This document shows, piece after piece, positions 49,228 to 64,000 of a DNA stretch of 64,000 nt. The stretch comes from Spirochaetia bacterium. Lineage in GTDB: Bacteria > Spirochaetota > Spirochaetia > CAKZLE01. The notes below the pieces were generated by a model. The model had not been told where the DNA came from, did no database searches, and saw nothing but the letters and a program-made list of their open reading frames with translations. The DNA is taken from positions 2,688,001 through 2,752,000 of the forward strand of contig OY782041.1 in the NCBI GenBank assembly GCA_963677595.1. The letters run 5' to 3'. Both the position numbers and the translations under genes were made by a program. Position 1 is the first letter of the stretch. Every line of letters starts with the position of its first letter.

Positions 49228-50832
49228 CTAGAAGAGCCCCGAGATCGTACCATCCCCTGCGATGTCTATATCGCAGGCGGAGGGGCGTGCGGGCAGCCCC
49301 GGCATGGTCATGATCTCGCCCGTATAGACCACGATGAACCCCGCGCCGGTCTTCGCCTCGACCTTCGAGACCGAGATCGGGAAGTCCCTGGGGCATCCCT
49401 CGAGCTTTGGGTTGTCAGACAGCGAGGACTGGGTCTTCGCCATGCAGATCGGGTAGGAGCCGAATCCCTGCTTCTCGAGCTTCCTCATCGTGGTGATCAC
49501 GCCCTTGGCATAGACCACCGAGCCGGCCCCGTACATCTCCCGGCAGACCTTCTCGATCTTCTCCCTGATTGGCTGACCCTCCTCGTAGAGCGGGTGATAG
49601 CAGTTTTTCTCCTCGCAGAGTTCCACCACGGTACGTGCAAGGTCGACTCCGCCGGCACCCCCTGACTCCCTGAAGTCGGTGATGTGGGCGGTGACGCCCT
49701 CGTCGGAGAGTTTTTCCTTCAGCCGGGCGAGTTCTTCCTCCGGGTCGTCGAGGAACCGGTTGATGGAGACGACCGGTTTGACGCCATGCTTCTTGATGTT
49801 GCCCACATGCTTGAGGATGTTGTCGAGCCCATGGATCCTGTAGGCCCGCAGGGTCACGACCAGGACCGCGACAGCAGGGGTGAACCCGCCGACCCTGCTC
49901 GTGATATTGAAGAACTTCTCCGCTCCCAGTTCCGATGCGAAACCTGCTTCGGTGACGGTGTAGTCTGCCAGGTTGAGGGCTGTTCTCGTCGCGATGATCG
50001 AGTTCGAACCGTGCGCGATGTTGGCGAAGGGCCCCCCGTGGATGAGGACCGGCACCCCCTCTATGCTCTGGACGAGGTTCGGCTCGATAGCCTGCTTCAG
50101 CAGGGCAGCCATGGCGCCTGCCGCTCCGATCTCCCCGGCCGTGACCGGTTTCCCCTCATAGGTATACCCGATGGTGATCCTCCCCAGCATCTCCTTGAGG
50201 TCGGTGATGTCTTCGGCGAGGCAGAGGATGGCCATGATCTCGGAGGCTGCCGTGATAGTGAAGCCGTCGACCCGGGCGATACCGTTCTCCCCATGGTCGC
50301 TCAACCCTACCGTGATGGAGCGCAGGGAACGGTCGTTCATGTCGATGACCCGATTCCAGATGACCTTGGCAGGGTGGAGCAGGGGCTCGTTCCGCTGGTG
50401 GATATGGTTGTCGATCATCGCCGAGAGGAGGTTATGGGCGATCGTCACCGCGTGGATATCACCGGTGAAGTGGAGGTTGATCTCCTCCATGGGGAGGACC
50501 TGGGAGTAGCCCCCGCCGGCAGCCCCTCCCTTGATCCCCATGCAGGGGCCGAGGGACGGTTCCCTGATCGCCGCTATGGAGGAACACCCGATCTTCTTCA
50601 GGGCCTGGGCAAGCCCGATCGTATTAGTCGTCTTTCCCTCGCCGTAGCGGGTGGGCGTCATGGCCGTCATAAGGATGAGGTGCCCGTGTCGGTCCCCCTT
50701 CGAGAAGGAAGTAGGCACCTTCGCGATATACCTCCCGTAGGGGTGGATATCCTGCTCGATACCCAGTGAAGCCGCGATCTCCGTGATCTTCTTCAGCTCT
50801 GCCTGCTGTGCGATCGTGATATCTGATACCAT
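49228..50832 (-). CDS. fhs: Formate-tetrahydrofolate ligase
   Basis: PTRYGEGKTT, IKGGAAGGGYSQV, HGGPFANIAHG and MTMPGLP motifs; SD GGGAGG before ATG 50832. Confidence 0.96.
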   Translation of the reverse strand: MVSDITIAQQAELKKITEIAASLGIEQDIHPYGRYIAKVPTSFSKGDRHGHLILMTAMTPTRYGEGKTTNTIGLAQALKKIGCSSIAAIREPSLGPCMGIKGGAAGGGYSQVLPMEEINLHFTGDIHAVTIAHNLLSAMIDNHIHQRNEPLLHPAKVIWNRVIDMNDRSLRSITVGLSDHGENGIARVDGFTITAASEIMAILCLAEDITDLKEMLGRITIGYTYEGKPVTAGEIGAAGAMAALLKQAIEPNLVQSIEGVPVLIHGGPFANIAHGSNSIIATRTALNLADYTVTEAGFASELGAEKFFNITSRVGGFTPAVAVLVVTLRAYRIHGLDNILKHVGNIKKHGVKPVVSINRFLDDPEEELARLKEKLSDEGVTAHITDFRESGGAGGVDLARTVVELCEEKNCYHPLYEEGQPIREKIEKVCREMYGAGSVVYAKGVITTMRKLEKQGFGSYPICMAKTQSSLSDNPKLEGCPRDFPISVSKVEAKTGAGFIVVYTGEIMTMPGLPARPSACDIDIAGDGTISGLF

Positions 50833-51009
50833 ATCGTACCTCCCGGTCTGGATTGTCTCTGTATCCTTACTATACAACCACCTGCAACAGAACGCAACAA
50901 CTATCATCTATGAGGATTTTCCCCATACATCTTGGCTGCCTCTTGACCGGAACCCGTATCGAAGCCATGATAGGACCTAGGCGGTAATACGAATAGGAGA
51001 GAAGATCGT

Positions 51010-52248
51010 ATGAAACAGACAATTCCGTACGGACAGGGCATGGTGGAAGTCACCCTGCCCGGGCAGACCGTGAGTATCGAGCCGAAGGATGTGCCGGAGT
51101 ATAATGAGCAGGCCGTCCTGGCAGAGGCGATGAAGAACCCTGTAGGCGCTGGAAGCATCGAGGAGTTCCTCGCAGAAGGGGAGAAGGTCCTCATCATCGT
51201 CAACGACGGGACCAGGCCGACACCGACCGGTGCAGTCATGGAGTCGCTGCTGCCGCTGCTCGAGGGAAAGGACGTCACCGTCATGGTCGCAACCGGGGTA
51301 CACCGCGGTGCGACCGATAAGGAGATGAAGCGGATCCTTGGGCCGACCTATGAGGCCCTGAAGGATACCGTGGTCTCCCATGATGCCCGCAAGGACGAGG
51401 AGATGGTCTACCTCGGGGTCAGCAAGAACGGGACCGAACTCGCCGTGAACAAGGCCGTCATGGAGTCGGACCGGATCATCGCGATCGGGTCGGTCGAACC
51501 CCACTATTTCGCCGGCTATACCGGGGGCAGGAAGGCGATCATGCCCGGGGTGGCGGCATTCCGGTCGATCGAGATGAACCATAAGAATGCCCTCGACCCA
51601 CGGGCCAAGGCCCTTGCCCTCGAGGGGAACCCGGTCCATGAGGATATGATCGACGTGCTCGAACTCCTCGAGGAGAAGCAGATCTATGCGATCATGACCG
51701 TCATGAACAAGCACCACAAGGTCTATGCTGCCACTGCGGGGGACATCACCGACTCGTTCTATGCCGCGATAGACAAGGCGAACGAGGTCTTCTGCGTGGA
51801 CTTGGAATCGAAGGCTGACATCGTCCTCACCGTGGCGAAACCCCCGATGGACATCGACCTCTACCAGTCCCAGAAGGCGATGGACAATGCGAAGCTTGCC
51901 CTCAAGGAGGGAGGCATCATGATCCTGGTCTCCTCCTGTGCCGACGGGGTGGGGGAGAAGGCCTTCTATGACCTCCTCTCCTCCTGCGATACCGCAGCAG
52001 AGGTCCTTGAGAAGATCAAGGGAGAGTATCGCCTCGGGTACCATAAGGCCGGGAAGATGGCGGAAGTCATCAACATGGCCGATATCTGGGTCGTGAGCGA
52101 CCTCACTGATGAGCTGTGGAGCAGCATCTTCATCAGGCAGTTTCCCTCCATACAGGAGGCGATCGATGCCGCACTGGAGCAGAAGGGGAAAGATGCCTCC
52201 TTCGTATTCATGCCTGACGGCTGCGTGACCGTCCCGAGACTCGCCTGA
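51010..52248 (+). CDS. LarA-family nickel-pincer racemase/epimerase
   Basis: NDGTRPTP, ATGVHR, HYFAGYTGGRK and DLYQSQK motifs. Confidence 0.9.
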   Translation: MKQTIPYGQGMVEVTLPGQTVSIEPKDVPEYNEQAVLAEAMKNPVGAGSIEEFLAEGEKVLIIVNDGTRPTPTGAVMESLLPLLEGKDVTVMVATGVHRGATDKEMKRILGPTYEALKDTVVSHDARKDEEMVYLGVSKNGTELAVNKAVMESDRIIAIGSVEPHYFAGYTGGRKAIMPGVAAFRSIEMNHKNALDPRAKALALEGNPVHEDMIDVLELLEEKQIYAIMTVMNKHHKVYAATAGDITDSFYAAIDKANEVFCVDLESKADIVLTVAKPPMDIDLYQSQKAMDNAKLALKEGGIMILVSSCADGVGEKAFYDLLSSCDTAAEVLEKIKGEYRLGYHKAGKMAEVINMADIWVVSDLTDELWSSIFIRQFPSIQEAIDAALEQKGKDASFVFMPDGCVTVPRLA

Positions 52249-52363: not shown

Positions 52364-52561
52364 TTGACAGGCGAACGAACCCTGTGTAAAATCTATTCAT
52401 GAAATAAAGAATACGTAGTCATGCAGATACGTATATCACCTTATGAAAATCAATAGAATAGTATGTATATGGTTCATAATTACGTTAAAGATTATACTAT
52501 ATAAAGTAGATAGTCTCTAACTATGTAGAATATGTTTATCTATAGAAGATTACGTAGTCAT
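52364..52561 (+). promoter_or_regulatory. TRAP operon promoter with two palindromic operators
   Basis: TTGACA (52364)-17-TAAAAT (52387); AAGAATACGTAGTCAT (52407-52422) and AAGATTACGTAGTCAT (52546-52561). Confidence 0.75.
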
Positions 52562-52636: not shown

Positions 52637-53647
52637 GTGAAACGATTACGAGTAATTGCATTGATGATCTGTCTGGTACTTGTCTCTGTGTCAGTCTTTG
52701 CCGGCGGGCAGCAGGAAGATGGTGTGAAAGTCATACGAGCTGGGCATGGTCAGCCGGTTGGAACAGGCCTGCACCAGGGATTCGTCTATTTCAAGGAAGC
52801 TGTCGAGAAGAAATCAAACGGAAAGATCACCGTCGAGATATATGACAGTGGGCAGTTAGGTGGAGACCGGGAGTTGACCGAAGGGGTACAGCTCGGGAAT
52901 GTGACGATGACTGCAGTATCCGCAGCTAACCTTGGGACGTTCGCCAAGGAGTTCTATGTCCTTGATACCTATTTCATGTTCAGGGATAGAGAGCATGTCT
53001 ACAATGTCCTTGATGGTGCTGCAGGACAGATGATGCTTGACGGGCTTACTGAAAAGGAGATCAAGGGGCTTGGCTACTGGGAGAATGGATTCAGGCATCT
53101 GACGAACAGCAAGCATGCGGTCAATGAGACTGCAGATATGAAGGGGCTGAAGATCAGGGTCCCTGACAACCCAGTACAGATCGCTGCCTGGAACTCTGTA
53201 GGGGCCGGTCCTGCACCGATGGCATGGGGAGAGCTCTTCACCGCCCTTCAGCAGAAGGCGCTCGATGCCCAGGAATCGACACTGGAATCGATCCAGACGA
53301 TGAAGTTCTACGAAGTACAGCCCTACATGACCCTTACCGGTCATAAGTACAGCCCCTATGTCATCCTGATGGGAAAATCCTTCTATGAGGGCCTGACTGC
53401 TGAGGAGAAGAAGTGGGTTGACGAGGCTGTCCTCGAGTCCATCGACAAACAGCGGGCATTCGCCCAGGAGAATGAGAAGAAGGCGCTTGATGCGATCGCT
53501 GCTTCCGGCAAGACCGAGATCGGTGAGCTTACCAATGAGGCAAAGATGGAATTCAGGCAGAAGATGTCCACGATCTACAGTATGGTAGAGGAGAAGAGCG
53601 GGAAGGAGATGTTCGACCTCTTCGTCTCCGAAGTCGACAAGTATTAG
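52637..53647 (+). CDS. dctP: TRAP transporter substrate-binding protein (DctP)
   Basis: GQLGGDRE, WENGFR, GLKIRVP (carboxylate-binding Arg) and ELFTALQQ motifs; GTG start at 52637 after AAGGAG. Confidence 0.93.
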   Translation: MKRLRVIALMICLVLVSVSVFAGGQQEDGVKVIRAGHGQPVGTGLHQGFVYFKEAVEKKSNGKITVEIYDSGQLGGDRELTEGVQLGNVTMTAVSAANLGTFAKEFYVLDTYFMFRDREHVYNVLDGAAGQMMLDGLTEKEIKGLGYWENGFRHLTNSKHAVNETADMKGLKIRVPDNPVQIAAWNSVGAGPAPMAWGELFTALQQKALDAQESTLESIQTMKFYEVQPYMTLTGHKYSPYVILMGKSFYEGLTAEEKKWVDEAVLESIDKQRAFAQENEKKALDAIAASGKTEIGELTNEAKMEFRQKMSTIYSMVEEKSGKEMFDLFVSEVDKY

Positions 53648-53715: not shown

Positions 53716-54294
53716 ATGAAAGTTTTACGTTGGTTGGATGACTATTTCGAAGCAATTTTCCTGATCGTGACCCTGTTCAGCATGAGTATCATCATCGCGG
53801 TCCAGGTCTTCTTCCGGTATGTGCTGCTCAACTCGATCTCCTGGTCTGAAGAGATCGCACGGTACCTCTTCATCTACATGGTCTATTTCGGGATATCATA
53901 TGCGGTCAGGACGAACCGTCATATCAGGGTGGAAGTGGTCCTGAACATGCTGCCAGACCGCGGCCGCAAGATCCTGACGATCATTGCTGATATCTTCTTC
54001 ATGATCTTTGCAACAGTGGTAACCGTGAAATCAGGTGTCGTTGTTGGAACGATCAGCAGGTTGGGGCAGATCGCTGGTGTGACGGGGATCCCGATGGGGA
54101 TCATCTACAGTGCCGTACCGGTCGGATACGGAATGGTCGTCGTACGGCTCCTGCAGAACCTGTATCATAAGATAACCCATATCAACGCTCCGTATGAGGA
54201 GTTCATCCATAGGAAGAATCCCGGGGAACGTTCCGGGGTCGGTACGGAGACTGTCGATGAGGCAGTCGCTGAAGCAGCCGGCGCTGCAGAGTAG
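53716..54294 (+). CDS. dctQ: TRAP small permease (DctQ)
   Basis: QVFFRY, WSEEIARY and HIRV motifs. Confidence 0.92.
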   Translation: MKVLRWLDDYFEAIFLIVTLFSMSIIIAVQVFFRYVLLNSISWSEEIARYLFIYMVYFGISYAVRTNRHIRVEVVLNMLPDRGRKILTIIADIFFMIFATVVTVKSGVVVGTISRLGQIAGVTGIPMGIIYSAVPVGYGMVVVRLLQNLYHKITHINAPYEEFIHRKNPGERSGVGTETVDEAVAEAAGAAE

Positions 54295-54303
54295 GAGAGT
54301 AGT

Positions 54304-55587
54304 ATGGCAACAGCACTTTTATTCGGGGGCTTCATCTTCTTTGCGGCAGTAAGTGTGCCGATAGGTATATCGCTTGGTATGGCCGTGATGCTGGTGATCA
54401 TTGCGACCGGGACGGTGGATCTCACGTTCATGGCCCAGGGACTGACAACCGCAATGGACTCCTTTCCGCTGATGGCGGCCCCCTTCTTCATCCTGGCCGG
54501 TGAGGTCATGGGCCGTGGAGGTATCTCGCGACGCCTGCTCAAGCTGGCAGATATCGCATTCGGCAGGTTCACGGGAGGCCTGGGGCTGGTGACCGTAGTC
54601 GCCTGCATGCTCTTTGCCGCTATATCAGGCACGGGTTCCGCCACCGTGGCCGCGATCGGATCGGTCATGGTACCCGAGATGCTCAAGAAGGGGTATAACA
54701 AGGGGTTCGCAGGAGGGCTGGTCGCATCCTCCGGTGCGATCGGGGCTATGATCCCCCCGAGTATCACGATGGTCATCTATTGTGTCACGGCAGGTGTCTC
54801 CATCACAGCGCTCTTCAGCGCCGGGATCATACCGGGGATCGTCATAGGGATCTCCCTGATCATCTATACGCTGATCTTCTCGAAGAAGAACGGTTATACC
54901 GGTTCTACGAAGCGGTATAGCGGCAAGGAGGTACTCGCATCAGTCAAGGAGGGCATCCCGGCCATCCTGATGCCGGTGATCATCCTCGGCGGGATCTATG
55001 GGGGCGTCTTCACCCCGACTGAAGCTGCTGCCGTGGCAGTAGTCTATGGGTTCATCGTCGCCTTGTTCGTCTATAAGGAGATATCCTTCAAGGATATCGG
55101 TGATATCGTGCTGAAATCAGCACTGATGACCTCTGTCATCCTGGTCATCATCGGGACGTCTGCAGGCTTCGGCAGGATCCTGGCCCTCGAACGCATCCCG
55201 CAGGTGATCGCAAATGCCATAGTCGGGTTCTCCTCGAGTAAGATCGTCATCCTGCTGCTGCTGAACCTGCTGCTGCTCTTCGTGGGAACCTTCATGGAGA
55301 CCCTGGCAGCCGTCATCATCCTGACTCCCATCCTGCTTCCTATCGTGACGAGCTTCGGGATGAGCCCTGTCCACTTCGGTGTCATGATGGTCATCAACCT
55401 GGCTATCGGGTTCGTGACCCCGCCGCTGGGAGCCAACCTCTTCGTGACCACCCAGATCATGGACATCACGTTCGAGGAGGTGTCGAAGGCGATCATACCA
55501 TTCATCATAACCATGGTGATAGCCCTGCTGTTCATCACCTTCGTCCCTGTCATATCGATGGGGCTGCCGACACTATTAGGATTCTGA
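54304..55587 (+). CDS. dctM: TRAP large permease (DctM)
   Basis: APFFILAG, IPPSI, FTPTEAA and TPPLG motifs. Confidence 0.94.
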   Translation: MATALLFGGFIFFAAVSVPIGISLGMAVMLVIIATGTVDLTFMAQGLTTAMDSFPLMAAPFFILAGEVMGRGGISRRLLKLADIAFGRFTGGLGLVTVVACMLFAAISGTGSATVAAIGSVMVPEMLKKGYNKGFAGGLVASSGAIGAMIPPSITMVIYCVTAGVSITALFSAGIIPGIVIGISLIIYTLIFSKKNGYTGSTKRYSGKEVLASVKEGIPAILMPVIILGGIYGGVFTPTEAAAVAVVYGFIVALFVYKEISFKDIGDIVLKSALMTSVILVIIGTSAGFGRILALERIPQVIANAIVGFSSSKIVILLLLNLLLLFVGTFMETLAAVIILTPILLPIVTSFGMSPVHFGVMMVINLAIGFVTPPLGANLFVTTQIMDITFEEVSKAIIPFIITMVIALLFITFVPVISMGLPTLLGF

Positions 55588-55826: not shown

Positions 55827-57295
55827 ATGAAACGTCTTGCGATCATACTTTCCCTGTTACTCACCCTCCTGTTCTCTTCCTGCCTCACCTCGACCCAGCT
55901 TGCACAGCAGGCCCTCTCCGAGGGCTCCTACCATGAAGCGGTCAGGCTCGCGCTGACCTCGCTGCAGGAGGATCCTGATGATGTAGAAGCCCTGCTGGCC
56001 TTGACGGAGGGCTGGGATACGGCGAACCGGCAGTGGAGGGAAGCTATCGAGACACTCCTTGCGGAAGCGACCCCGGAGGGGAGGGAACCTGCCCTCGGGT
56101 ACTACCGGGACCTTGCCGCCCTGCATGGCCTGGTACAGGAAGCCGGCGGCTACCGCCTCGACCCTGATCCTGACGCGGTGAACCGGGAGGCGGAAGAGGC
56201 CGCAGCCGATATCGCACGGCAGTATCTCGATGCAGGGTCAGCTGCCTCTATACGGAGACACGAGAAGGAGCCCGGAAAGCCGTCCCCCTGATCGGGAAGG
56301 CTTTCGGCCTGGACCCGGGGCTGGAGGATGAATTCACCTACCTCTACGAGCGGGCAGTTGAACAGGCAACCCTCCGGGTCCTGGTGTTCACCGGACCTGA
56401 CGCGAACTTCAGGCTCAATGGGATCCGGGTCGTTGCCCATATCGAGGACCTCCTTGACCGGCTGGAGTTCGTCGAGGCGGTACGCGTCCCGCAGCGGTAT
56501 GCAGCCCCGGTGGATGATGACCACCATGCAAAGGACTGGGCCAGGGGGCACGGAGCTGACGTGATGCTCCATATCGAGCTTGATACCACCTACTCATCAG
56601 GCCTCAAGACGGCGAGCGAGCCCCTGGCTTCAGTCCCCTGGACCAGGGATACGGCATGGCTGGAGGCTGAAGGCTCTTCAGACGTTCGCCTCGTGCTCAT
56701 CGACCTGTCCGATGACTCGGTCATCAGTGATACCACGATCGTATCAGCTCGAAGGCAGTCAGGTGATATCGTGCTCTCGGGTATCCACGGCACTACCAGG
56801 CAGGCAGTCCTTCAGCTGGGCGGTATGAGTGCTCCCCGTGAGCTTATCGTGCAGGCCGCTCCGGTGGGAATGAGCAGCCCGACGCTGGCTTACCATCTAA
56901 CCCGGACTGATGGGCTCGACCTCCCGTCCTGGGGGTTCGAGACCGGTGCGGACCCGCTGGTGGGCGAGCGGCTCGACCCGACTTCCTACAGCACCCTCGA
57001 GGGGCTCGAATCCTTCAGCCGGATCACCGGCCATGATTTCCTGCTCTTCGATGTGCTCGAGTTCGATCCCTACGGTGACGGTAACCTGACCTACCAGTAT
57101 GCCTATGCCCCGATGGGGGAGGGAGCTGACGGCTGCCTTGCAGCCTCAGTCTATGAACGGGAACTCTATTACGGGCTGCAGGAAGCCATGGAGTCCCGCG
57201 AGGTGCAGCAGGAGTTTGCAGAACGGTTCTTCACCACCTTCTATGAGACCTCGATCGGTAACGATGTGGTAAAGGCAATAGCCCCGCTCCTCTGA
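55827..57295 (+). pseudogene. Frameshifted TPR-like lipoprotein (about 489 aa if repaired)
   Basis: ORF1 (lipobox FSSC) stops at 56291. The frame of ORF2 is open back to at least 56231, and adding one G to GGG at 56235-56237 joins them as YLDAG-VSCLYTETREGARKAVPLIGKA. Confidence 0.7.
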
Positions 57296-57353: not shown

Positions 57354-57698
57354 ATGACTACGTATCTGAAATCGTATTCAGATGAAAGTAAGTATGACAA
57401 TACTCTGCAACTTATTGTATAATAACTAGTAACAATGTTCTTCGCAGCCATGCGAAGGTGACCGTGCATCATATGACAGGTTTTCTCGCTTCGGGGACGA
57501 TAGGCCGGGAATCGGTATGTGCAGGCTTGTCCCAAGTGTTTGTCCGAAATAAGAGGAATCTTCTAAATGCCTATATTATAATAAGTAATATATATTTCAC
57601 CGCGCTTTTTCCTGGTGGTTCACAGGAAGCTGGTAATTTCATCAAGAAAAATATGGACAAGTAACAGGGAGGTATGTATAATAAGACTACGTAATCAT
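57354..57698 (+). promoter_or_regulatory. Catabolic-operon promoter with two copies of the same operator
   Basis: ATGACTACGTATCTGA (57354-57369); TGGACA (57654)-17-TATAAT (57677), immediately followed by AAGACTACGTAATCAT (57683-57698). Confidence 0.75.
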
Positions 57699-57745: not shown

Positions 57746-58813
57746 ATGGAACAGCCGACCGTATCATATACCGACCTGAACGAATACCTGACCCGGCTCT
57801 ATGAGGCTGCAGGGGTGCCGACAGCGGATGCCGCTGTCTGTGCGGACTGCACGGTGAAGACCAATCTCTGGGGAGTCGATTCCCATGGGGTGCTCCGTAC
57901 CCCCGATTACATCGAACGGCTCCTGAAGAAGGCCGTCAACCCTGAGCCTGATGTAAAGCTTGTCGCGAAGGCTGACGGGCCCTTCTCCCTGATGGACGGT
58001 GATGCCGGCATGGGCTATGTCGTTGGGACGAAGGCTATGGAGGCCGCGATGGAGAAAGCGGAGAAGTTCGGGATCGGGATCGTCCTCGTGAAGAACAGCA
58101 ACCACTTCGGGGCTGCCTCCCTCTTTACCCGGATGGCGGCAGAGAAGGGGATGCTCGGGATCGCGACGACTAACGTGAGGCCCAACATCGGGATGCCTGG
58201 GGGGAAGGCCCCGGTCACCGGGAACAACCCGCTGGCGCTCGCTGCCCCGATCGGGCAGCCGTACCCGTTCTCCCTCGATATCTCGATGAGTGCCGTATCA
58301 GGGGGGAAGATCCTGCTGGCGCAGAAGAAGGGCGAGAAGATCCCCACGACCTGGGCGATCGACAAGGACGGGAACCCGACCGACGACCCCTTCGCCGGGT
58401 TCGCCGGTATCCTGCTCCCTACCGGGATGCATAAGGGACTCGGGCTCTCCTTCTTCATCGACATCGTCACCGGCGTCATGAGCGGCGGCCCCTTCCTCCA
58501 GGATATCAAGAGCATGTACAAGGACGCCGATGAGCCATCGCTCACCTCACACCTTGTGTGTGCGATCGACCCGACCATGTTCCAGAGTCGCGAGGAGTAC
58601 GAGGCGAGCATGGAGAAGTGGGTCGGCATGATCAAGGCGACCCCGATGGCAGACCCCGAGGCGACGCAGATCATTCCCGGGGAGATCGAGTACATGCTCG
58701 AGAACAAGCGAAAGACGGAAGGGATCCCGGTCCCGCCCCAGTTGATGAAGGACCTTGCAGCCCTGGACGAGAGACTCGGAATCTCTTCAGGACTGACAGC
58801 AGATAACCAATAA
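57746..58813 (+). CDS. Ldh_2 family oxidoreductase (ComC/AllD/DlgD-like)
   Basis: GVDSHG, NSNHFGA, GNNP, LDISMS and HKGLGL motifs. Confidence 0.9.
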   Translation: MEQPTVSYTDLNEYLTRLYEAAGVPTADAAVCADCTVKTNLWGVDSHGVLRTPDYIERLLKKAVNPEPDVKLVAKADGPFSLMDGDAGMGYVVGTKAMEAAMEKAEKFGIGIVLVKNSNHFGAASLFTRMAAEKGMLGIATTNVRPNIGMPGGKAPVTGNNPLALAAPIGQPYPFSLDISMSAVSGGKILLAQKKGEKIPTTWAIDKDGNPTDDPFAGFAGILLPTGMHKGLGLSFFIDIVTGVMSGGPFLQDIKSMYKDADEPSLTSHLVCAIDPTMFQSREEYEASMEKWVGMIKATPMADPEATQIIPGEIEYMLENKRKTEGIPVPPQLMKDLAALDERLGISSGLTADNQ

Positions 58814-58837
58814 TTCAAAGATTGCAGGAGTATAGAG

Positions 58838-59752
58838 ATGAAGAAACAGACAGAGTTCAAGCTGAACAAGAGAGATTCCGTATGGTTCCAGGAGAACAGC
58901 GCCCATGTAGTCGTCAACTACGCGAAAGAGGTATGTGACGTGGCGATCCTCCCGCTTGGGGCGATCGAGCAGCATGCTGCCCATGCACCGACCGGGATGG
59001 ATACCTACAACGCCATCGGCATCGCGGAGAAGGTCGGCGAGGCTACCGGTGCGATGGTCCTTCCCTGCCCGATGTACGGCTCCCATCCCCACCACCACTG
59101 GGGCATGCAGGGAACCATCCCACTGACCTATGAGACCCATATCGGGCTGATCATGGATATCATCAGGGGTGCTTCCGTTGCCGGCTATAACAAGTTCATC
59201 ATCATCTCTGCTCACGGCCAGGTCTCATCGGTGATCGTCGCCACCCACAAGCTCGGGATCGAGGGACTCTTCACCATCTCCTCTACCTGGTATGACTTCC
59301 TCCGTGACGACAAGAACGTCCTCGAGGACTATATGTGGCATGCTGACGAGGCAGAGACCTCGGTCGGGCTCTACCTCTATCCCCAGTGGATCCAGATGGA
59401 CCTCGCCGAGGCAGGCGGCGGTACCCCGCTGATCGACTCCAAATGGAAGATCGCCCCGGGACAGGTATGTGGACCCGGTATGCTCTACCACTTCGAGGGA
59501 ACCTTCGCGCTTCCCGAGAAAGATGACCTGGAAAACGGTGTCATCGGTGACCCAACTAAGGCTACCCTCGAGAAGGGCGAGGCCTGTGTCGAGCGGGTCG
59601 TCGGCTACTATGCTGAACTCATCGAGGAGATCAAGACGAAGTTCCCCATCGGGATCAACCCCCTTGGCTTCAGGAACCCGGGCGGCTATGCGACATCTGC
59701 TGACATCGTATATGACAAAGATCACGACGAGAAAGGACAGCTGAAGAAATGA
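58838..59752 (+). CDS. Creatininase-family hydrolase resembling IolN (3-dehydro-scyllo-inosose hydrolase)
   Basis: GAIEQH..H.PTGMD, YGSHPHHHWGMQGT, AHGQ, HADEAETS and GVIGDPTKAT motifs. Confidence 0.82.
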   Translation: MKKQTEFKLNKRDSVWFQENSAHVVVNYAKEVCDVAILPLGAIEQHAAHAPTGMDTYNAIGIAEKVGEATGAMVLPCPMYGSHPHHHWGMQGTIPLTYETHIGLIMDIIRGASVAGYNKFIIISAHGQVSSVIVATHKLGIEGLFTISSTWYDFLRDDKNVLEDYMWHADEAETSVGLYLYPQWIQMDLAEAGGGTPLIDSKWKIAPGQVCGPGMLYHFEGTFALPEKDDLENGVIGDPTKATLEKGEACVERVVGYYAELIEEIKTKFPIGINPLGFRNPGGYATSADIVYDKDHDEKGQLKK

Positions 59753-60582
59753 GACTGAAGGACAAAGTAGCGGTGATCACCGGCGGTACCAAGGGTATCG
59801 GGCTGGGGATCGCTATCGAGTTCGCGAAGGAGGGGGCGTCTGTCGTGATCGGCGGGCGCAACCCCGAGACCGGAGAGGAGGGGCTCGCAGAGCTCCTCGC
59901 CCTCGGCGGCGAGGCGATGTATGTTCCCTGCGACGTGGGGAACCTGGAGAGCCTGCAGAACATCATAGACAAGACCGTGGAACGGTTCGGCCGTGTCGAC
60001 ATCTACGTCTCCAATGCGGGGATCAACGACTCGCAGAAGACACCCTACCTGGAGATCACCCCCGAGCAGTACGACCGCATCATGGACGTGAACCTGCGGG
60101 GGATGTTCTTCGGGGACCAGTATGCGGCACGCGAGATGGTGAAGCAGGGGACCGGCGGGGCGATCATCAACATGTCCTCGGTCAACGCCTACCTGGCGCT
60201 CAACAGCCAGATGGTCTACACCACGAGCAAGGGCGGGGTACAGCAGCTGACGAAGGTACAGGCGGTGGACCTGGTCCCCTACGGGATCAAGGTGAACGCA
60301 CTTGCCCCGGGACCGATCGAGACCGAGCTCATGAGGCGGGTCGGGTCGGACAAGCAGCTGATGGACACGATCCTCTCCCGGACACCGATGGGACGGATCG
60401 GGACCCCGAAGGAGTGCGGGAGACTGGCAGTCTTCCTCGCATGCGAGGATTCCGACTTCATCATGGGACAGACGATCTACAACGACGGGGGACGAGGCTT
60501 CCAGGCCTTCCCGAACCCGGGCTACAAGACCGTTACCGACGAAGACTATGCACTGCTGCAGCAGATGAAAGAAGGCGAATGA
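59749..60582 (+). CDS. Short-chain dehydrogenase/reductase
   Basis: TGGTKGIG, SNAG, YTTSK and VNALAPG motifs. Confidence 0.92.
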   Translation: MRLKDKVAVITGGTKGIGLGIAIEFAKEGASVVIGGRNPETGEEGLAELLALGGEAMYVPCDVGNLESLQNIIDKTVERFGRVDIYVSNAGINDSQKTPYLEITPEQYDRIMDVNLRGMFFGDQYAAREMVKQGTGGAIINMSSVNAYLALNSQMVYTTSKGGVQQLTKVQAVDLVPYGIKVNALAPGPIETELMRRVGSDKQLMDTILSRTPMGRIGTPKECGRLAVFLACEDSDFIMGQTIYNDGGRGFQAFPNPGYKTVTDEDYALLQQMKEGE

Positions 60583-62006
60583 GTATGAGATACCCGAAAG
60601 CAGGACTGATCACCTTCGGTGACCACAGAGGCCCCGAGTGGGCGAAAGTATTCGAGGGACTGACCGTGCCTCGCCATGAGAAGGCGGCACAGATCCTAGG
60701 GGAGCTCCCGCTGGAGCTGGTCTCGTTCCCGACGGTCGCACGTACCCGCGACGAGATCAATGAACAGGTGGATGCCCTCAAGCAGGCAGGGGTGGAGGTG
60801 TTCATCGCCCATACCCCCTGCTGGACCTCCCCGAACCTGGTCGTGCACGGGGTGCAGAGGATGGGGATCTATACCATCGTCCTCGGTAACCGCGACATGG
60901 GAACGCACGGCTGCGTCGGACTCTTCGGTGCCGCAGGGGCCCTTTCCCAGATCGGCAGCGAGCACAAGCGCATCAGGATGGACTATGAGACTCCCACCTA
61001 TGAGCAGAAGCTCCTGCCCATCATCAGGGCGGCCTCCGCAGCAGCACGGCTGAAGGGCTCGGTCATGGGACACTTCGGCGGGCGGTCCATCGGGATCGAC
61101 ACCGCGACCTTCGACCCGATGGGCTGGAGGAAGCAGTTCGGTGTAGATGTCGAGCATATCGACCAGGTCGAGATCCTGAGGATCGCAGAGACAATCGAAC
61201 AGGGGCGGATCGACAGGATGCGCACCTGGATCGAGCAGAATGCCAAAGAGGTCCTCTACAACGATGACAAGTTCACGAAGGAGAAATTCGACTTCCAGCT
61301 TGCCTGCTATATCGCGACGAAGGATATCTGCAGGGAATCGGGACTCGACTTCACGGCGATCAAGTGCATGCCGGAACTCTCGAACTCCTATGTACCCCAG
61401 TGCATGACCGCGACCTTCCTTCCCAATGACTATGACGGGGAAGAGGGCGAGAAGGATGCCATCGTCATGGCCTGTGAGGCCGATGCCGACGGGGCACTCA
61501 CCCAGCAGATCCTCAAGCTGCTCTCGGGCGGGATGCCGACCTTCTTCGCAGATGTCAGCCACATCGATGATGCACGGAAGACGATCTACTGCGTCAACTG
61601 CGGGGCAGTATGCGCCTGGTATGCCGGGCGGGATGCCGACCCCAACAAGAACCTCAACCAGATCGTGATCAAGCAGTCGATCAGGCCCGGAGGGGCTGCG
61701 ATCTCAGGCTTCTTCGCCGCAGAGGGACCGATGCAGCTCGCACGGCTCTATCGCGTGGACGGGAAGTACCGGATGGCGATCATCCCCTGCGATGCCGTCA
61801 CCCCGAGCGAGGAGATCCTCGATGAGTTCGTGGAGGCTCGCGGCCCGCACCAGCTCCCGGCACTCTTTGCCAAGGTCGATTTCGACCTGGATGCGTTCGT
61901 CGACGAGTACGGTTCCAACCATATCTCCGGTGTAGCCGGCGCATATGTCGAGGAACTCGTGGAACTCTGCCGCATGCTCGATATCGAGCCGGTCGTGTTC
62001 AGATAG
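60579..62006 (+). CDS. L-fucose/L-arabinose isomerase family protein
   Basis: FGGRSIGI, KCMPEL, ACEADADG and YGSNHI motifs; ATG 60579 overlaps the SDR stop codon. Confidence 0.82.
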   Translation: MSMRYPKAGLITFGDHRGPEWAKVFEGLTVPRHEKAAQILGELPLELVSFPTVARTRDEINEQVDALKQAGVEVFIAHTPCWTSPNLVVHGVQRMGIYTIVLGNRDMGTHGCVGLFGAAGALSQIGSEHKRIRMDYETPTYEQKLLPIIRAASAAARLKGSVMGHFGGRSIGIDTATFDPMGWRKQFGVDVEHIDQVEILRIAETIEQGRIDRMRTWIEQNAKEVLYNDDKFTKEKFDFQLACYIATKDICRESGLDFTAIKCMPELSNSYVPQCMTATFLPNDYDGEEGEKDAIVMACEADADGALTQQILKLLSGGMPTFFADVSHIDDARKTIYCVNCGAVCAWYAGRDADPNKNLNQIVIKQSIRPGGAAISGFFAAEGPMQLARLYRVDGKYRMAIIPCDAVTPSEEILDEFVEARGPHQLPALFAKVDFDLDAFVDEYGSNHISGVAGAYVEELVELCRMLDIEPVVFR

Positions 62007-62017
62007 GAAGGAATGAG

Positions 62018-62803
62018 ATGGAAATAACCAATACGAACAGGGTCAAGAGACTCCTGAAAGAGGGAAAGCGCGTGACCGGGGCCTGGGCCCAGGCTGCGAG
62101 CAACATCACCACGGAGATCCTCGCAGATGCGGGCTTCGACGTGATCATGGTCGACATGGAGCATGGTCCCGGGAACATCCTGACCCTGATCTCACAGATC
62201 CAGGGGATGAAGGGACAGCCGACCGTACCATTCGTGCGGGCTCCCTGGAATGACTTCGTGCAGATCAAGAAGATCCTCGATGCCGGCACCTTCGGGCTGC
62301 TTGTCCCCTACGTTAACACGAAAGAAGAGGCAGAAGCGGCAGTCAAGGCTGTCAAATACCCGCTGACCGGGATCAGGGGAGTCTCAGGCTCACCGAGAGG
62401 GCCCCACTTCGGGAACAACTCGATGGACTACCTCAAGCAGGCGAATGATGAGATCTTCCTCATGACTGCAGTCGAGACCCTCGAGGCGGCAGAGAACATC
62501 GATGAACTGCTCACCGTCGAGGGACTCGACGGGATCTTCATCGGGCCGATGGACCTTGCCACGAGCATGGGCTACTTCGGGGACGCCTCAGTCCCTGAAG
62601 TCCAGGCCGTGATCAGGAAGGTGGAAGAGAAGGTCTTCGCCAGCGACAAGATCCTGGCTACCGTCGGCGGCAGCTGGGAGCAGGCGACAGCGAAGTACGA
62701 GCGAGGATACCAGCTGCTGATGCTGATGTCCGACACCGTCTCGCTCGGTGCCTATGCACGGGGCCTCGTGAACAGTTTCTCCCAGGCATTCCCTGAGAGA
62801 TAG
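62018..62803 (+). CDS. HpcH/HpaI-family class II pyruvate aldolase
   Basis: VDMEHG, KKILDAG, VET and FIGPMDL motifs. Confidence 0.92.
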   Translation: MEITNTNRVKRLLKEGKRVTGAWAQAASNITTEILADAGFDVIMVDMEHGPGNILTLISQIQGMKGQPTVPFVRAPWNDFVQIKKILDAGTFGLLVPYVNTKEEAEAAVKAVKYPLTGIRGVSGSPRGPHFGNNSMDYLKQANDEIFLMTAVETLEAAENIDELLTVEGLDGIFIGPMDLATSMGYFGDASVPEVQAVIRKVEEKVFASDKILATVGGSWEQATAKYERGYQLLMLMSDTVSLGAYARGLVNSFSQAFPER

Positions 62804-62837
62804 AGCCTCAAGACTATAACGAATGATGGAGAGACAT

Positions 62838-63854
62838 ATGGGAAAGGTAAAAGTAGGAGTAGCAGGATACGGCGTGATCGGGCAGCGACTGGCAGACGGG
62901 GTAGCGGCCCAGGGAGACATGGAGCTCGTAGGTGTTGCCGACATAGCCCCGACGATATCGGTGCGGGCGCTCAAGCACCGGGGCATGCCGTATAAGATGT
63001 TCAACGTGGACCCGAAGAACACGTCGATGGCAGATGCCGGGATCCCGGTATCGGGGAGCTTCGAGGAACTCGTACAGGAGTGCGACATCATGCTCGACAG
63101 CTCACCTGGCGGCATCGGCGCGCGGAACAAGGAGCTGTACGTCAAACATGGGACGAAGGCCGTGTTCCAGGGCGGCGAGAAGAACGATATCGCAGACGTC
63201 TTCTTCCACGGGTATGCGAACTACGAGCAGGGCATCGGGGCGGACTACCTGAAGCTCACGAGCTGCAATACCACCGGGCTCATCCGTGCGGTAGATATGC
63301 TCGACCGGAGTGTAGGCCTTGAGAAAGTGGCGATCACGATCATCCGTCGGGTGGCAGACCCGGGTGACTACCATCGGGGGCTGACCAATGCCCTGCAGGT
63401 GGAGAAGGCACCGAGCCACCAGGCACTCGACCTGATGACGATCATGCCCCATATCCCGTGTACGGGAATCCTGGTACACACCCCGGTGACCCACGGCCAC
63501 ATCATCACGGTGACGGCAACGCCGAAGAACAAGATCGAGAAGGAAGAGCTGTGGGAGATGGCGCAAAACCACCCGCGGATCATGCCGGTACGACTGGCAG
63601 ACGGGTTCTTAGGGAACGCATCGATGTTCCGCTGGGCACGCGATATCGGGAATGCACGAGGTGACATGTATGAGATCGGGCTGTGGGAAGAGTCGATCGT
63701 GAAGTCAGGAGATGACATCATGTTCGCGATCAACATCCCGCAGGAGTCCGTGGTGATCCCGGAGAACATCGACGGGATCAGGGCCGCGATGGGGATGCAG
63801 GCGACCAGGGAAGAGGGGACGGCAGCAACGAACCAGTACCTGGGCATGAAGTAA
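62838..63854 (+). CDS. Archaeal-type (type II) phosphorylating glyceraldehyde-3-phosphate dehydrogenase homologue
   Basis: GYGVIGQRLADGV, FQGGEK, SCNTTGL, RRVADP and QESVVIPENID motifs are class II signatures. Confidence 0.9.
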   Translation: MGKVKVGVAGYGVIGQRLADGVAAQGDMELVGVADIAPTISVRALKHRGMPYKMFNVDPKNTSMADAGIPVSGSFEELVQECDIMLDSSPGGIGARNKELYVKHGTKAVFQGGEKNDIADVFFHGYANYEQGIGADYLKLTSCNTTGLIRAVDMLDRSVGLEKVAITIIRRVADPGDYHRGLTNALQVEKAPSHQALDLMTIMPHIPCTGILVHTPVTHGHIITVTATPKNKIEKEELWEMAQNHPRIMPVRLADGFLGNASMFRWARDIGNARGDMYEIGLWEESIVKSGDDIMFAINIPQESVVIPENIDGIRAAMGMQATREEGTAATNQYLGMK

Positions 63855-63864
63855 GAGAGCACCG

Positions 63865-64000
63865 ATGAAAGAGCATACGTTAGGGTTCAAGCCGATGGAG
63901 GAATTTGATGTCTCGGGTAAGCGGGTATTGCTGCGGGTGGACATCAACTCCCCGGTGGACCCGAAGACGAAGGCAATAGTCAACGAGAACCGGCTGGAGA
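63865..64000 (+). CDS. pgk: Partial phosphoglycerate kinase, archaeal-like N-terminus
   Basis: Manual translation gives MKEHTLGFKPMEEFDVSGKRVLLRVDINSPVDPKTKAIVNENRLE; truncated by the window edge. Confidence 0.85.
   Translation, partial: MKEHTLGFKPMEEFDVSGKRVLLRVDINSPVDPKTKAIVNENRLE

Follow-up and report, generated by a model that had tools for sequence, protein, structure and literature searches.

A kinase-free spirochaete operon with a class II GAPDH/PGK pair and its possible role in mycosporine ring breakdown

A catabolic operon that ends in a class II glyceraldehyde-3-phosphate dehydrogenase (GAPDH-II) and an archaeal-type phosphoglycerate kinase (PGK) raises, in a spirochaete, the question of what this pair of enzymes acts on and which compound the operon serves to degrade. 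The operon lies at the end of a stretch of 64,000 nucleotides (the window, C1:2688001-2752000) from the genome of a Spirochaetia bacterium (G000), which consists of one 4.33 Mb contig (C1) and is rated 95.4% complete. The operon is real and longer than first described in an earlier note on this stretch, since it comprises a racemase, a tripartite ATP-independent periplasmic (TRAP) transporter, six core enzymes, GAPDH-II, PGK, a racemase-like protein and a LacI regulator. From its genes and those of its relatives we tentatively read it, short of even confidence, as a conserved, likely LacI-controlled system for the uptake and breakdown of the mycosporine ring core (4-deoxygadusol or its desmethyl form) in anaerobes, with an end that yields malate and ATP.

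Layout of the operon

The seven open reading frames (ORFs) of the earlier note are all present on the + strand with gaps of -4 to 24 bp, and profile matches bore out the families guessed for them. The first encodes an Ldh_2-family 2-hydroxyacid dehydrogenase (57746..58813), which passes no equivalog cut-off, and is followed by a creatininase-family metallohydrolase (58838..59752), predicted to open the ring of a cyclic beta-diketone, and by a short-chain dehydrogenase/reductase (SDR, 59749..60582), a predicted aldose (hemiacetal) dehydrogenase that passes the cut-off of a glucose 1-dehydrogenase subfamily (234 against 215). A fucose-isomerase-like ketose/aldose isomerase (60585..62006) and an HpcH/HpaI class II pyruvate aldolase (62018..62803), both assigned by family match, precede the class II GAPDH (62823..63854), which scores over both family cut-offs, and the archaeal-type PGK (63865..64000), whose RVDINSP motif corresponds to residues 24-30. 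The PGK gene is cut by the window edge after its first 45 codons and ends at 65133. The genes past the edge, which the earlier note had proposed to read, are (positions counted on from the window) an Asp/Glu-racemase-family gene (65229-65891), annotated only as such, a LacI gene (65993-67009) and a gene for an SMP-30 lactonase (67032-67922), which completes the core set.

On the 5' side, the unit starts with a LarA-family nickel-pincer racemase (51010..52248, +), whose best model is the LarAH6 malate racemase (404, cut-off 500), and continues with the TRAP solute-binding protein DctP (52637..53647, +; likely GTG start, the ORF finder placing it at 52532) and the small and large permeases (53716..55587, +; DctQ 53716-54294, DctM 54304-55587), labelled from their sequences and their position after DctP. 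Neither a sugar kinase nor a dehydratase is encoded in the unit, in the window or past its edge, which extends the earlier observation that no sugar kinase is present up to the edge and supports a kinase-free catabolic route.

The GAPDH-II/PGK pair and its copies

By curated cut-offs the GAPDH is of type II (NF003251, 391.7 against 185; TIGR01546, 294.9 against 232.9). A relative is encoded by 568 of 597 candidate stretches from GTDB contigs (about 930 matching stretches are estimated overall), and the best 80 were kept for comparison. The catalytic Cys (SCNTT), the RR motif and the catalytic His are present in all 80. So are Asp40 in the cofactor loop, where four PDB matches have SKTR, TKTK or AKTS, and Gln200 of a His-Gln pair (residues 199-200), where these matches have SHH (His-His). 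We take the basic cofactor loop and the His-His anion site to have these roles in archaeal GAPDH, and the Asp in the loop presumably means use of NAD. The best PDB match of the PGK is 2cun (284 bits, the next match scoring 206), which we take to be the Pyrococcus horikoshii enzyme; the PGK fold (PF00162, 362 bits) and the nucleotide motifs GGAK and GGGDS are present. A PGK adjoins the GAPDH in 73 of the 80 loci, and Asp26, Asn28, Arg43, His66, Arg124 and Arg170 are kept in all of them. At position 69, the site of the canonical Arg65, 42 of the 73 have Asp and 31 Ser (Asp69 in the PGK of this operon), against Arg or Lys in four aligned PDB PGKs and in the housekeeping PGK, which together with the four PDB GAPDHs form the base of these residue contrasts. 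The canonical basic patch Arg65/Arg122/Arg170 is not complete, in that the equivalents of Arg122 and Arg170 are kept and Arg65 is replaced. In PMC7729029, Arg65 is described as a member of this patch that binds the 3-phosphate and helps to close the domains. Judged by these residues, the pair looks altered for a non-phosphate substrate.

It could still be argued that the cassette is ordinary extra capacity for glycolytic glyceraldehyde 3-phosphate (G3P) that hitch-hikes on sugar operons, the aldehyde of the operon being handled elsewhere: the GAPDH retains every catalytic residue and the PGK most of its substrate residues, one of the four sugar clusters with a cassette has a kinase plus class II aldolase and would give triose phosphate, and a paralogous operon does without the cassette. 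However, the genome also encodes a housekeeping class I gap-pgk-tpi cluster (C1:3786538-3789503), so that the window genes, for which the earlier note had left this point to be checked, are not its only gap and pgk; malate racemase and malic enzyme genes co-occur with the pair; and in other copies of the operon its place is taken by aldehyde:ferredoxin oxidoreductase (AOR), HisD-like or kinase modules. Given the housekeeping genes, the Asp or Ser at the Arg65 site in 73 of 73 relatives and the malate-racemase-like neighbours, we regard a glycolytic role as improbable.

Four GAPDH-II/PGK pairs are found in the genome (C1:633443-635741, 937207-939505, 2750823-2753133 and 3555735-3558030), following four different sugar clusters. 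Their GAPDHs are 95.6-98.3% identical and their PGKs 86-94.5%, with mosaic identity at the DNA level. An assembly artefact was considered and rejected, as the copies differ by 7-9% in DNA, in a mosaic manner, and have different flanks, and as relatives also carry two copies of the cassette. One copy carries the last 160 bp of the HpcH gene of the window operon and therefore likely derives from it. In a tree built by a quick method (86 rows), the four GAPDHs group together within a clade rich in Christensenellaceae (support 99), and the syntenic GAPDH of a close relative (L022) groups among spirochaete sequences, beside its own paralog; this placement suggests transfer followed by gene conversion, likely a horizontal replacement. 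Many relatives carry spirochaete names. The pair, which the earlier note had seen as part of the route of this operon, is therefore not specific to it, being a portable cassette with four copies here and the many matches estimated in GTDB contigs.

A possible substrate emerges from the neighbours of the 80 GAPDH-II loci, which include LarA in 53 and malic enzyme in 26. Malate racemases of the LarA family have been described (PMC7583248), and three of three LarAs beside inositol and other GAPDH-II loci exceed the malate-racemase cut-off, with scores of 581-586. In relatives L053, L099 and L101, LarA adjoins the operon or is fused to the PGK, and the PGK-LarA fusion (L101:11583-14129) ties the two activities together. 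The source genome has eight LarA-domain matches. The Asp/Glu-racemase-family gene is found in 9 of the 80 loci, none of which has a transketolase or IolD. Inositol genes are present in 34 loci, 22 of them with transketolase, and no IolC kinase over cut-off was found in the source genome or in any of five inositol-type carriers. One cassette copy of the source genome lies in such an inositol cluster (C1:625044-651902; L003 and L004), with iolG, iolD, iolE, an iolB-like gene and two transketolase pairs; lacking IolC, it is a candidate kinase-free inositol route. By established chemistry, 2-deoxy-5-keto-gluconate, which IolB forms, would yield malate semialdehyde under the action of a transketolase. 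This aldehyde mimics G3P with a carboxylate, and its oxidation to D-malate would explain the racemase. Conversion of malic semialdehyde to D-malate is a natural step, catalysed by a single dehydrogenase in Acinetobacter according to PMC11353897. We therefore consider oxidation of malate semialdehyde to D-malate, with formation of ATP, to be the probable reaction of the pair. The proposal of the earlier note that the pair acts on a G3P analogue thus looks right in kind; its example, sulfolactaldehyde, is not the favoured substrate.

Acetoin-dehydrogenase-like E1/E2 genes are found in 8 of the 80 GAPDH-II loci. In Clostridium magnum, Acetobacterium and a related metagenome-assembled genome (L028, L062, L069, L070, L080) the pair stands with acetoin-dehydrogenase-like E1/E2/E3 genes, a molybdenum hydroxylase and LarA, a setting that we read as a further route feeding the same module.

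Sulfolactaldehyde is an isostere of G3P, and the operon could on this ground belong to a sulfosugar route, resembling the sulfo-Entner-Doudoroff pathway in its SDR, lactonase and HpcH, in which the pair would oxidise sulfolactaldehyde to sulfolactate. The best NCBIfam match of the Ldh_2 protein is L-sulfolactate dehydrogenase (261, cut-off 500), the isomerase weakly matches the sulfoquinovose isomerase SftI (66, cut-off 700), a YihQ-type sulfoquinovosidase is encoded in the genome, and the HisD-like neighbours resemble HpsN-type enzymes. On the other hand, no sulfoquinovosidase, no SftI over cut-off and no sulfogluconate dehydratase was found in the operon or among the annotated neighbours, and the recurring neighbour families annotated (24 representatives plus more) likewise include neither a dehydratase nor a sulfoquinovosidase; methyl- and amide-handling genes would also be left unexplained. 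The sulfoquinovosidase of the genome belongs to another cluster, which contains transketolase and a closer SftI-like isomerase of its own (217 bits) and has neither the pair nor the predicted operator described below. This separate cluster, together with the malate-racemase-like and malic-enzyme neighbours, disfavours sulfolactaldehyde, and we hold the sulfosugar route to be very improbable. The separate cluster (C1:1453404-1472049, covered in part by L213) encodes the sulfoquinovosidase, the SftI-like isomerase, an aldehyde dehydrogenase, an ATP-binding cassette (ABC) importer and a split transketolase, and is likely a sulfo-transketolase cluster.

Core enzymes, predicted operator and possible substrate

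The conservation of the operon was assessed in 80 metagenome loci anchored on the hydrolase, many of them short, which reduce to 33 clusters at 90% identity. At the thresholds used, SDR was found in 18 clusters, Ldh_2 in 17, the isomerase in 16, HpcH in 12 and the lactonase in 10, so that the six core enzymes are a conserved, recurring set. The earlier description of the hydrolase as IolN-like holds for its family and for its best NCBIfam model (IolN, NF041098). Its metal motifs (EQH..D, H and HxxExETS, here HADE.ETS) are kept and align with 3lub and creatininase, and a plasmid search with it gave only distant matches of about 30%. For the isomerase no PDB match was found.

Gene replacements among the relatives are informative about the chemistry. 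In one subgroup the corresponding genes encode an IolB/KduI isomerase, a lactonase of the metallo-beta-lactamase fold, a zinc dehydrogenase and a D-2-hydroxyacid dehydrogenase, and this exchange supports the reaction types assigned. In three loci of one sequence cluster (L137, L177, L178) HpcH is replaced by an RraA protein, and the one tested exceeds the cut-off for 4-carboxy-4-hydroxy-2-oxoadipate (CHA) aldolase (212.6 against 179); a CHA aldolase in this place makes a tertiary alcohol in the aldol likely. Different end modules occur as well, namely GAPDH-II/PGK with the racemase-family gene, AOR, a HisD-like dehydrogenase, a DUF1537-type kinase, or a CoA-transferase and crotonase with a 4-hydroxybutyryl-CoA dehydratase/HpaB-fold protein (labelled dehydratase from fold and context). 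Most of these modules are consistent with a product of four carbons. Genes of URO-D/MtaA-like, corrinoid and activator type are found repeatedly beside relatives of the operon; according to PMC10418091, such methyltransferase homologs can instead act in the metabolism of methyl-sulfur or methyl-selenide compounds. N-substituents are suggested by amidase, nitrilase-family, M19 and M20 genes in the neighbourhoods of relatives, and SnoaL-like and M19 amidohydrolase genes recur near hydrolase loci. Taken as predictions from gene content, these swaps suggest a cyclohexane-1,3-dione that is branched and methoxylated, the mycosporine core 4-deoxygadusol being the most likely candidate. Desmethyl-4-deoxygadusol is a mycosporine precursor (PMC12904256). 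A cyclic 2-hydroxy-1,3-diketone with a 5-hydroxy-5-hydroxymethyl group, the substitution that we take this compound to have, would need exactly the six core enzymes and no kinase, dehydratase or ring dehydrogenase; the methoxy group and the amino-acid arms of mycosporines would explain the methyltransferase and the amidase/SnoaL genes. We give the mycosporine core, as substrate, somewhat less than an even chance.

In the route that we propose, the TRAP transporter would import the anion, the amino-acid arms would be removed by SnoaL and amidase genes located elsewhere, and the 2-O-methyl group by URO-D/corrinoid genes. The creatininase-like enzyme would then hydrolyse the cyclic 2-hydroxy-1,3-diketone to a ketose acid, which the isomerase would convert to an aldose, to be oxidised by the SDR and the SMP-30 lactonase to a 2-hydroxy diacid. 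Ldh_2 would form from it 4-hydroxy-4-hydroxymethyl-2-oxoadipate, and HpcH would split this into pyruvate and 4-hydroxy-3-oxobutanoate. The aldolase product is thus probably a ketone, where the earlier note had the GAPDH receive the aldolase-derived aldehyde, and it would have to be isomerised first: this step, from 4-hydroxy-3-oxobutanoate to malate semialdehyde, may fall to the racemase-family protein and is the weakest assignment. GAPDH-II would convert malate semialdehyde to malyl phosphate and NADH, PGK would give D-malate and ATP, and LarA and malic enzyme would lead from D-malate to pyruvate.

The same chemistry and the same malate end would serve another O-methylated or branched cyclitol acid, such as an O-methyl-inositol, a relative of quinate or another metabolite. 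Reaction types are all that the enzyme families determine, the hydrolase has IolN as its top-scoring model, the gut occurrences would fit plant cyclitols, and quinate would likewise yield a tertiary aldol (CHA). Yet inositols and quinate require two extra ring dehydrogenases and most copies have a single SDR, and neither the amidase/SnoaL genes nor the mostly marine and saline hosts of SnoaL would be explained. Such a compound is in our view a less likely substrate, though one to be reckoned with. Quinate itself was rejected as a favoured substrate, as the dehydrogenases are missing; it also has no methyl group, and its product would be oxaloacetate, so that the four-carbon end modules would have no explanation.

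Gadusol, with one more hydroxyl, would in turn lead through a 3-oxo-tetronate and tartrate semialdehyde to tartrate and ATP, the divergent LarA being a tartrate epimerase. DUF1537-type kinases act on oxo-tetronates, and such a kinase with a class II aldolase takes the place of the pair in L148 and G571; the LarAs of this operon type, moreover, score about 400, apart from the malate racemases at 580 and above. Against this stands the near identity of the GAPDH (95.6-98.3%) to copies that follow inositol/IolB-transketolase genes, where a malate aldehyde is expected, and gadusol seems to us a distinctly unlikely substrate.

Three clusters of the source genome share elements with this system. A paralogous operon (C1:2209513-2224946, L010) encodes TRAP, LacI, transaldolase-like and creatininase-like proteins, lactonase, Ldh_2, SDR, isomerase, HpcH, URO-D, a class II aldolase and a rhamnulokinase-like kinase, without GAPDH or PGK. 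A cluster at C1:3433605-3444534 comprises (labels from sequences) TRAP, an RraA/CHA-aldolase-like protein, Ldh_2, AOR, SDR, a cupin, a different creatininase-family gene and a zinc dehydrogenase. The third (C1:1674434-1682020) is a transketolase-TRAP-transaldolase-like cluster that begins with a second member of the racemase family (35% identical).

Links to mycosporines come mainly through SnoaL. A SnoaL ortholog is present in six of six genomes with this operon type (G000, G301, G303, G306, G307, G308), as compared with 4 of 300 in a phylum sample, and SnoaL, M19, operon and pair are contiguous in G307, as they are, without M19, in L101. SnoaL relatives of up to 59% identity are carried on plasmids of Deinococcus, Pantoea, Sinorhizobium, Phaeobacter, Ruegeria, Vibrio, Paracoccus and Halobellus, and the hosts are mostly marine and saline. 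Most of the ten aerobic regions read contain HisD-like, SDR, cupin, alpha/beta hydrolase, HpcH or RraA, and LacI genes; several have an amidase or nitrilase-family gene, three a MetE-like gene, and a haloarchaeal one a DesA/LigM-like O-demethylase. In Vibrio pelagius and Phaeobacter piscinae only the importer and SnoaL genes of the set lie within 15 kb, and for Vibrio pelagius this fits the reported removal of the arms of shinorine by Vibrio harveyi, in a study that also has bacteria form 4-deoxygadusol (PMC3083659). The source genome has two ABC-importer plus SnoaL clusters (C1:2927039-2935143 and 2465607-2473892), one of them with a second HisD-like dehydrogenase and LacI. The homarine pathway homABCDER was rejected as a candidate, the main text of PMC13236597 being without SnoaL, creatininase, histidinol or aldolase.

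A predicted LacI operator connects these modules. A palindrome with the consensus TGAATACGTATTCA occurs in the window before the TRAP genes (AGAATACGTAGTCA, 52408..52421), again before DctP (AGATTACGTAGTCA, 52547..52560) and 48 bp 5' of the Ldh_2 start (AGACTACGTAATCA, 57684..57697), each as a pattern match, with a weaker operator-like site at 57355-57368. With a pattern written from these sites of the operon itself, the genome gave nine matches at up to two mismatches against 4.4 by chance, and four against 0.5 at up to one. Each of the nine lies between genes, three in the window operon, four in the paralogous operon (C1:2209-2221 kb), one at a URO-D gene and one at a cupin-hydrolase-HpcH operon; each precedes genes of the proposed system, the last operon resembling the aerobic genes. 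The palindrome is also present in 22 of the 80 hydrolase loci (20 of the 39 that are at least 8 kb long), in 3 of 5 GAPDH-II loci with the module against 1 of 75 without it, and in 4 of the 10 aerobic SnoaL loci (Vibrio, Pantoea, Sinorhizobium, Deinococcus), with shuffled controls giving 0-0.5 sites per group. The same motif lies 5' of Ldh_2 in L053, L059, L101, L207, L211 and others. At the same stringency it was not found in the sigma-54-type subgroup, L137, L143, L148 or L177. This distribution shows one regulator family, predicted to be LacI, across the modules. A weak operator-like site is located at C1:2931527, in a SnoaL cluster region. More tentatively than for the operon alone, the operon could be the anaerobic branch of a pathway for the breakdown of mycosporine-like amino acids and gadusol. 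A single LacI regulon family, shared by Vibrio and roseobacters of the sea, spirochaetes of sediments and clostridia of the gut, would then combine arm stripping, demethylation and hydrolytic ring opening with, in anaerobes, a malyl-phosphate end that yields ATP through a repurposed archaeal-type GAPDH/PGK pair.

A number of observations weigh against the mycosporine core as substrate and malate as the end of the route. The hydrolase stays below the IolN cut-off (153.5 against 245) and could be an amidase instead, and solved relatives of the transporter did not reveal the TRAP ligand. URO-D and SnoaL genes are not in the window operon itself and lie elsewhere in the genome. The six SnoaL-positive genomes are related spirochaetes and not independent, the four SnoaL-positive genomes of the phylum sample have no close hydrolase, and the L020 genome has a partial core (lactonase, isomerase, HpcH) and no SnoaL match. 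Most aerobic SnoaL clusters (Deinococcus, Pantoea, Sinorhizobium, Paracoccus) contain no recognisable demethylase, and sarcosine-oxidase genes, which may be unrelated, adjoin the Vibrio cluster. A shared operator speaks for related repressors, not for a shared inducer. Close homologs of the hydrolase are found on human-gut contigs, where mycosporines are presumably scarce; these gut copies form few sequence clusters, and 1 of 399 Clostridia genomes scanned has one. As to the malate end, the window LarA is below the cut-off of NF052593 (LarAH6), which is still its best LarA model, and the source genome has no match to LarC and none over cut-off to LarE (LarB was not searched), so that the nickel-pincer cofactor may be unavailable.

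Two further features of the window remain to be mentioned. Between the TRAP genes and Ldh_2, two ORFs (55827..57295, +) correspond to a lipoprotein-like gene that is apparently frameshifted (frame change near 56250-56290). No such gene lies there in G303 or L099, and as DctP stands directly 5' of Ldh_2 in G303 these ORFs are an insertion outside the pathway. A formate-tetrahydrofolate-ligase-like gene (49228-50907, -; labelled from its sequence), in divergent orientation to LarA, could play a part in handling methyl groups that are split off the substrate.

Relation to known systems

The pair resembles archaeal class II GAPDH (2czc, 1b7g, 1cf2, 2yyy) and PGK (2cun) in its family cut-offs, catalytic Cys, RR and His, and adjacent gap-pgk order. 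It differs in being bacterial, accessory and multicopy, in the Asp for the archaeal Lys of the cofactor loop, the His-Gln for His-His and the Asp or Ser at the Arg65 site of PGK, and in having malate racemase and malic enzyme as neighbours. With the IolG-IolM-IolN-IolO inositol route of Thermotoga maritima (NCBIfam NF041098) the operon has in common an enzyme of the creatininase family for which opening of a cyclic beta-diketone, with a keto acid as product, is predicted; here, however, the IolN cut-off is missed, the core has no inositol dehydrogenases, and isomerase, SDR, lactonase, Ldh_2 and aldolase stand where Thermotoga has an epimerase leading to hexuronates. As in 4,5-cleavage of gallate and protocatechuate (the LigK/GalC CHA aldolase; DesA/LigM), a 4-substituted 4-hydroxy-2-oxoadipate would yield pyruvate, and some relatives have a CHA aldolase over cut-off or a DesA/LigM-like gene, whereas there is no ring dioxygenase or aromatic upper pathway here, the predicted opening is hydrolytic and free of O2, and import is of sugar type or by TRAP.

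Sulfo-Entner-Doudoroff and non-phosphorylative Entner-Doudoroff pathways employ SDR, SMP-30 lactonase, HpcH aldolase and aldehyde oxidation and no sugar kinase. The window route shares these features and differs in having no dehydratase and an extra ring hydrolase, isomerase and 2-hydroxyacid dehydrogenase. Carnitine catabolism of Acinetobacter (PMC11353897) also passes through malic semialdehyde and D-malate. One NAD(P)-dependent aldehyde dehydrogenase carries out the oxidation there, and no ATP step is mentioned in the passages covered, unlike the phosphorylating two-enzyme route with gain of ATP predicted here.

All enzymes are of known families. In the literature searched, outside which lay most subscription journals and supplements, we found neither the gene set nor the GAPDH-II/PGK module described, nor any genes for the catabolism of mycosporines, nor the sequence of the operator, in line with the earlier failure to match this combination to a described pathway. 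The pathway is thus undescribed in the literature covered and its substrate-level phosphorylation is probably new; new as well are the operator common to the modules, their physical linkage and a route in which the carbon balances.

As sunscreens against UV, mycosporines are widespread in algae, cyanobacteria, corals and fungi. Their conversion by bacteria has been reported, the genes not being found in the literature searched, and for their breakdown the operon supplies named enzymes, predicted intermediates and a predicted operator. A natural pair of malate kinase and malyl-phosphate reductase would interest metabolic engineers, who reportedly build malyl-phosphate routes from engineered enzymes. 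If our reading of the pair is true, whatever the substrate of the operon, several hundred bacterial GAPDH/PGK annotations would be wrong, and the pair would be a portable module for gaining ATP from aldehydes, with which a kinase-free inositol route of anaerobes in gut and sediment would also be complete.

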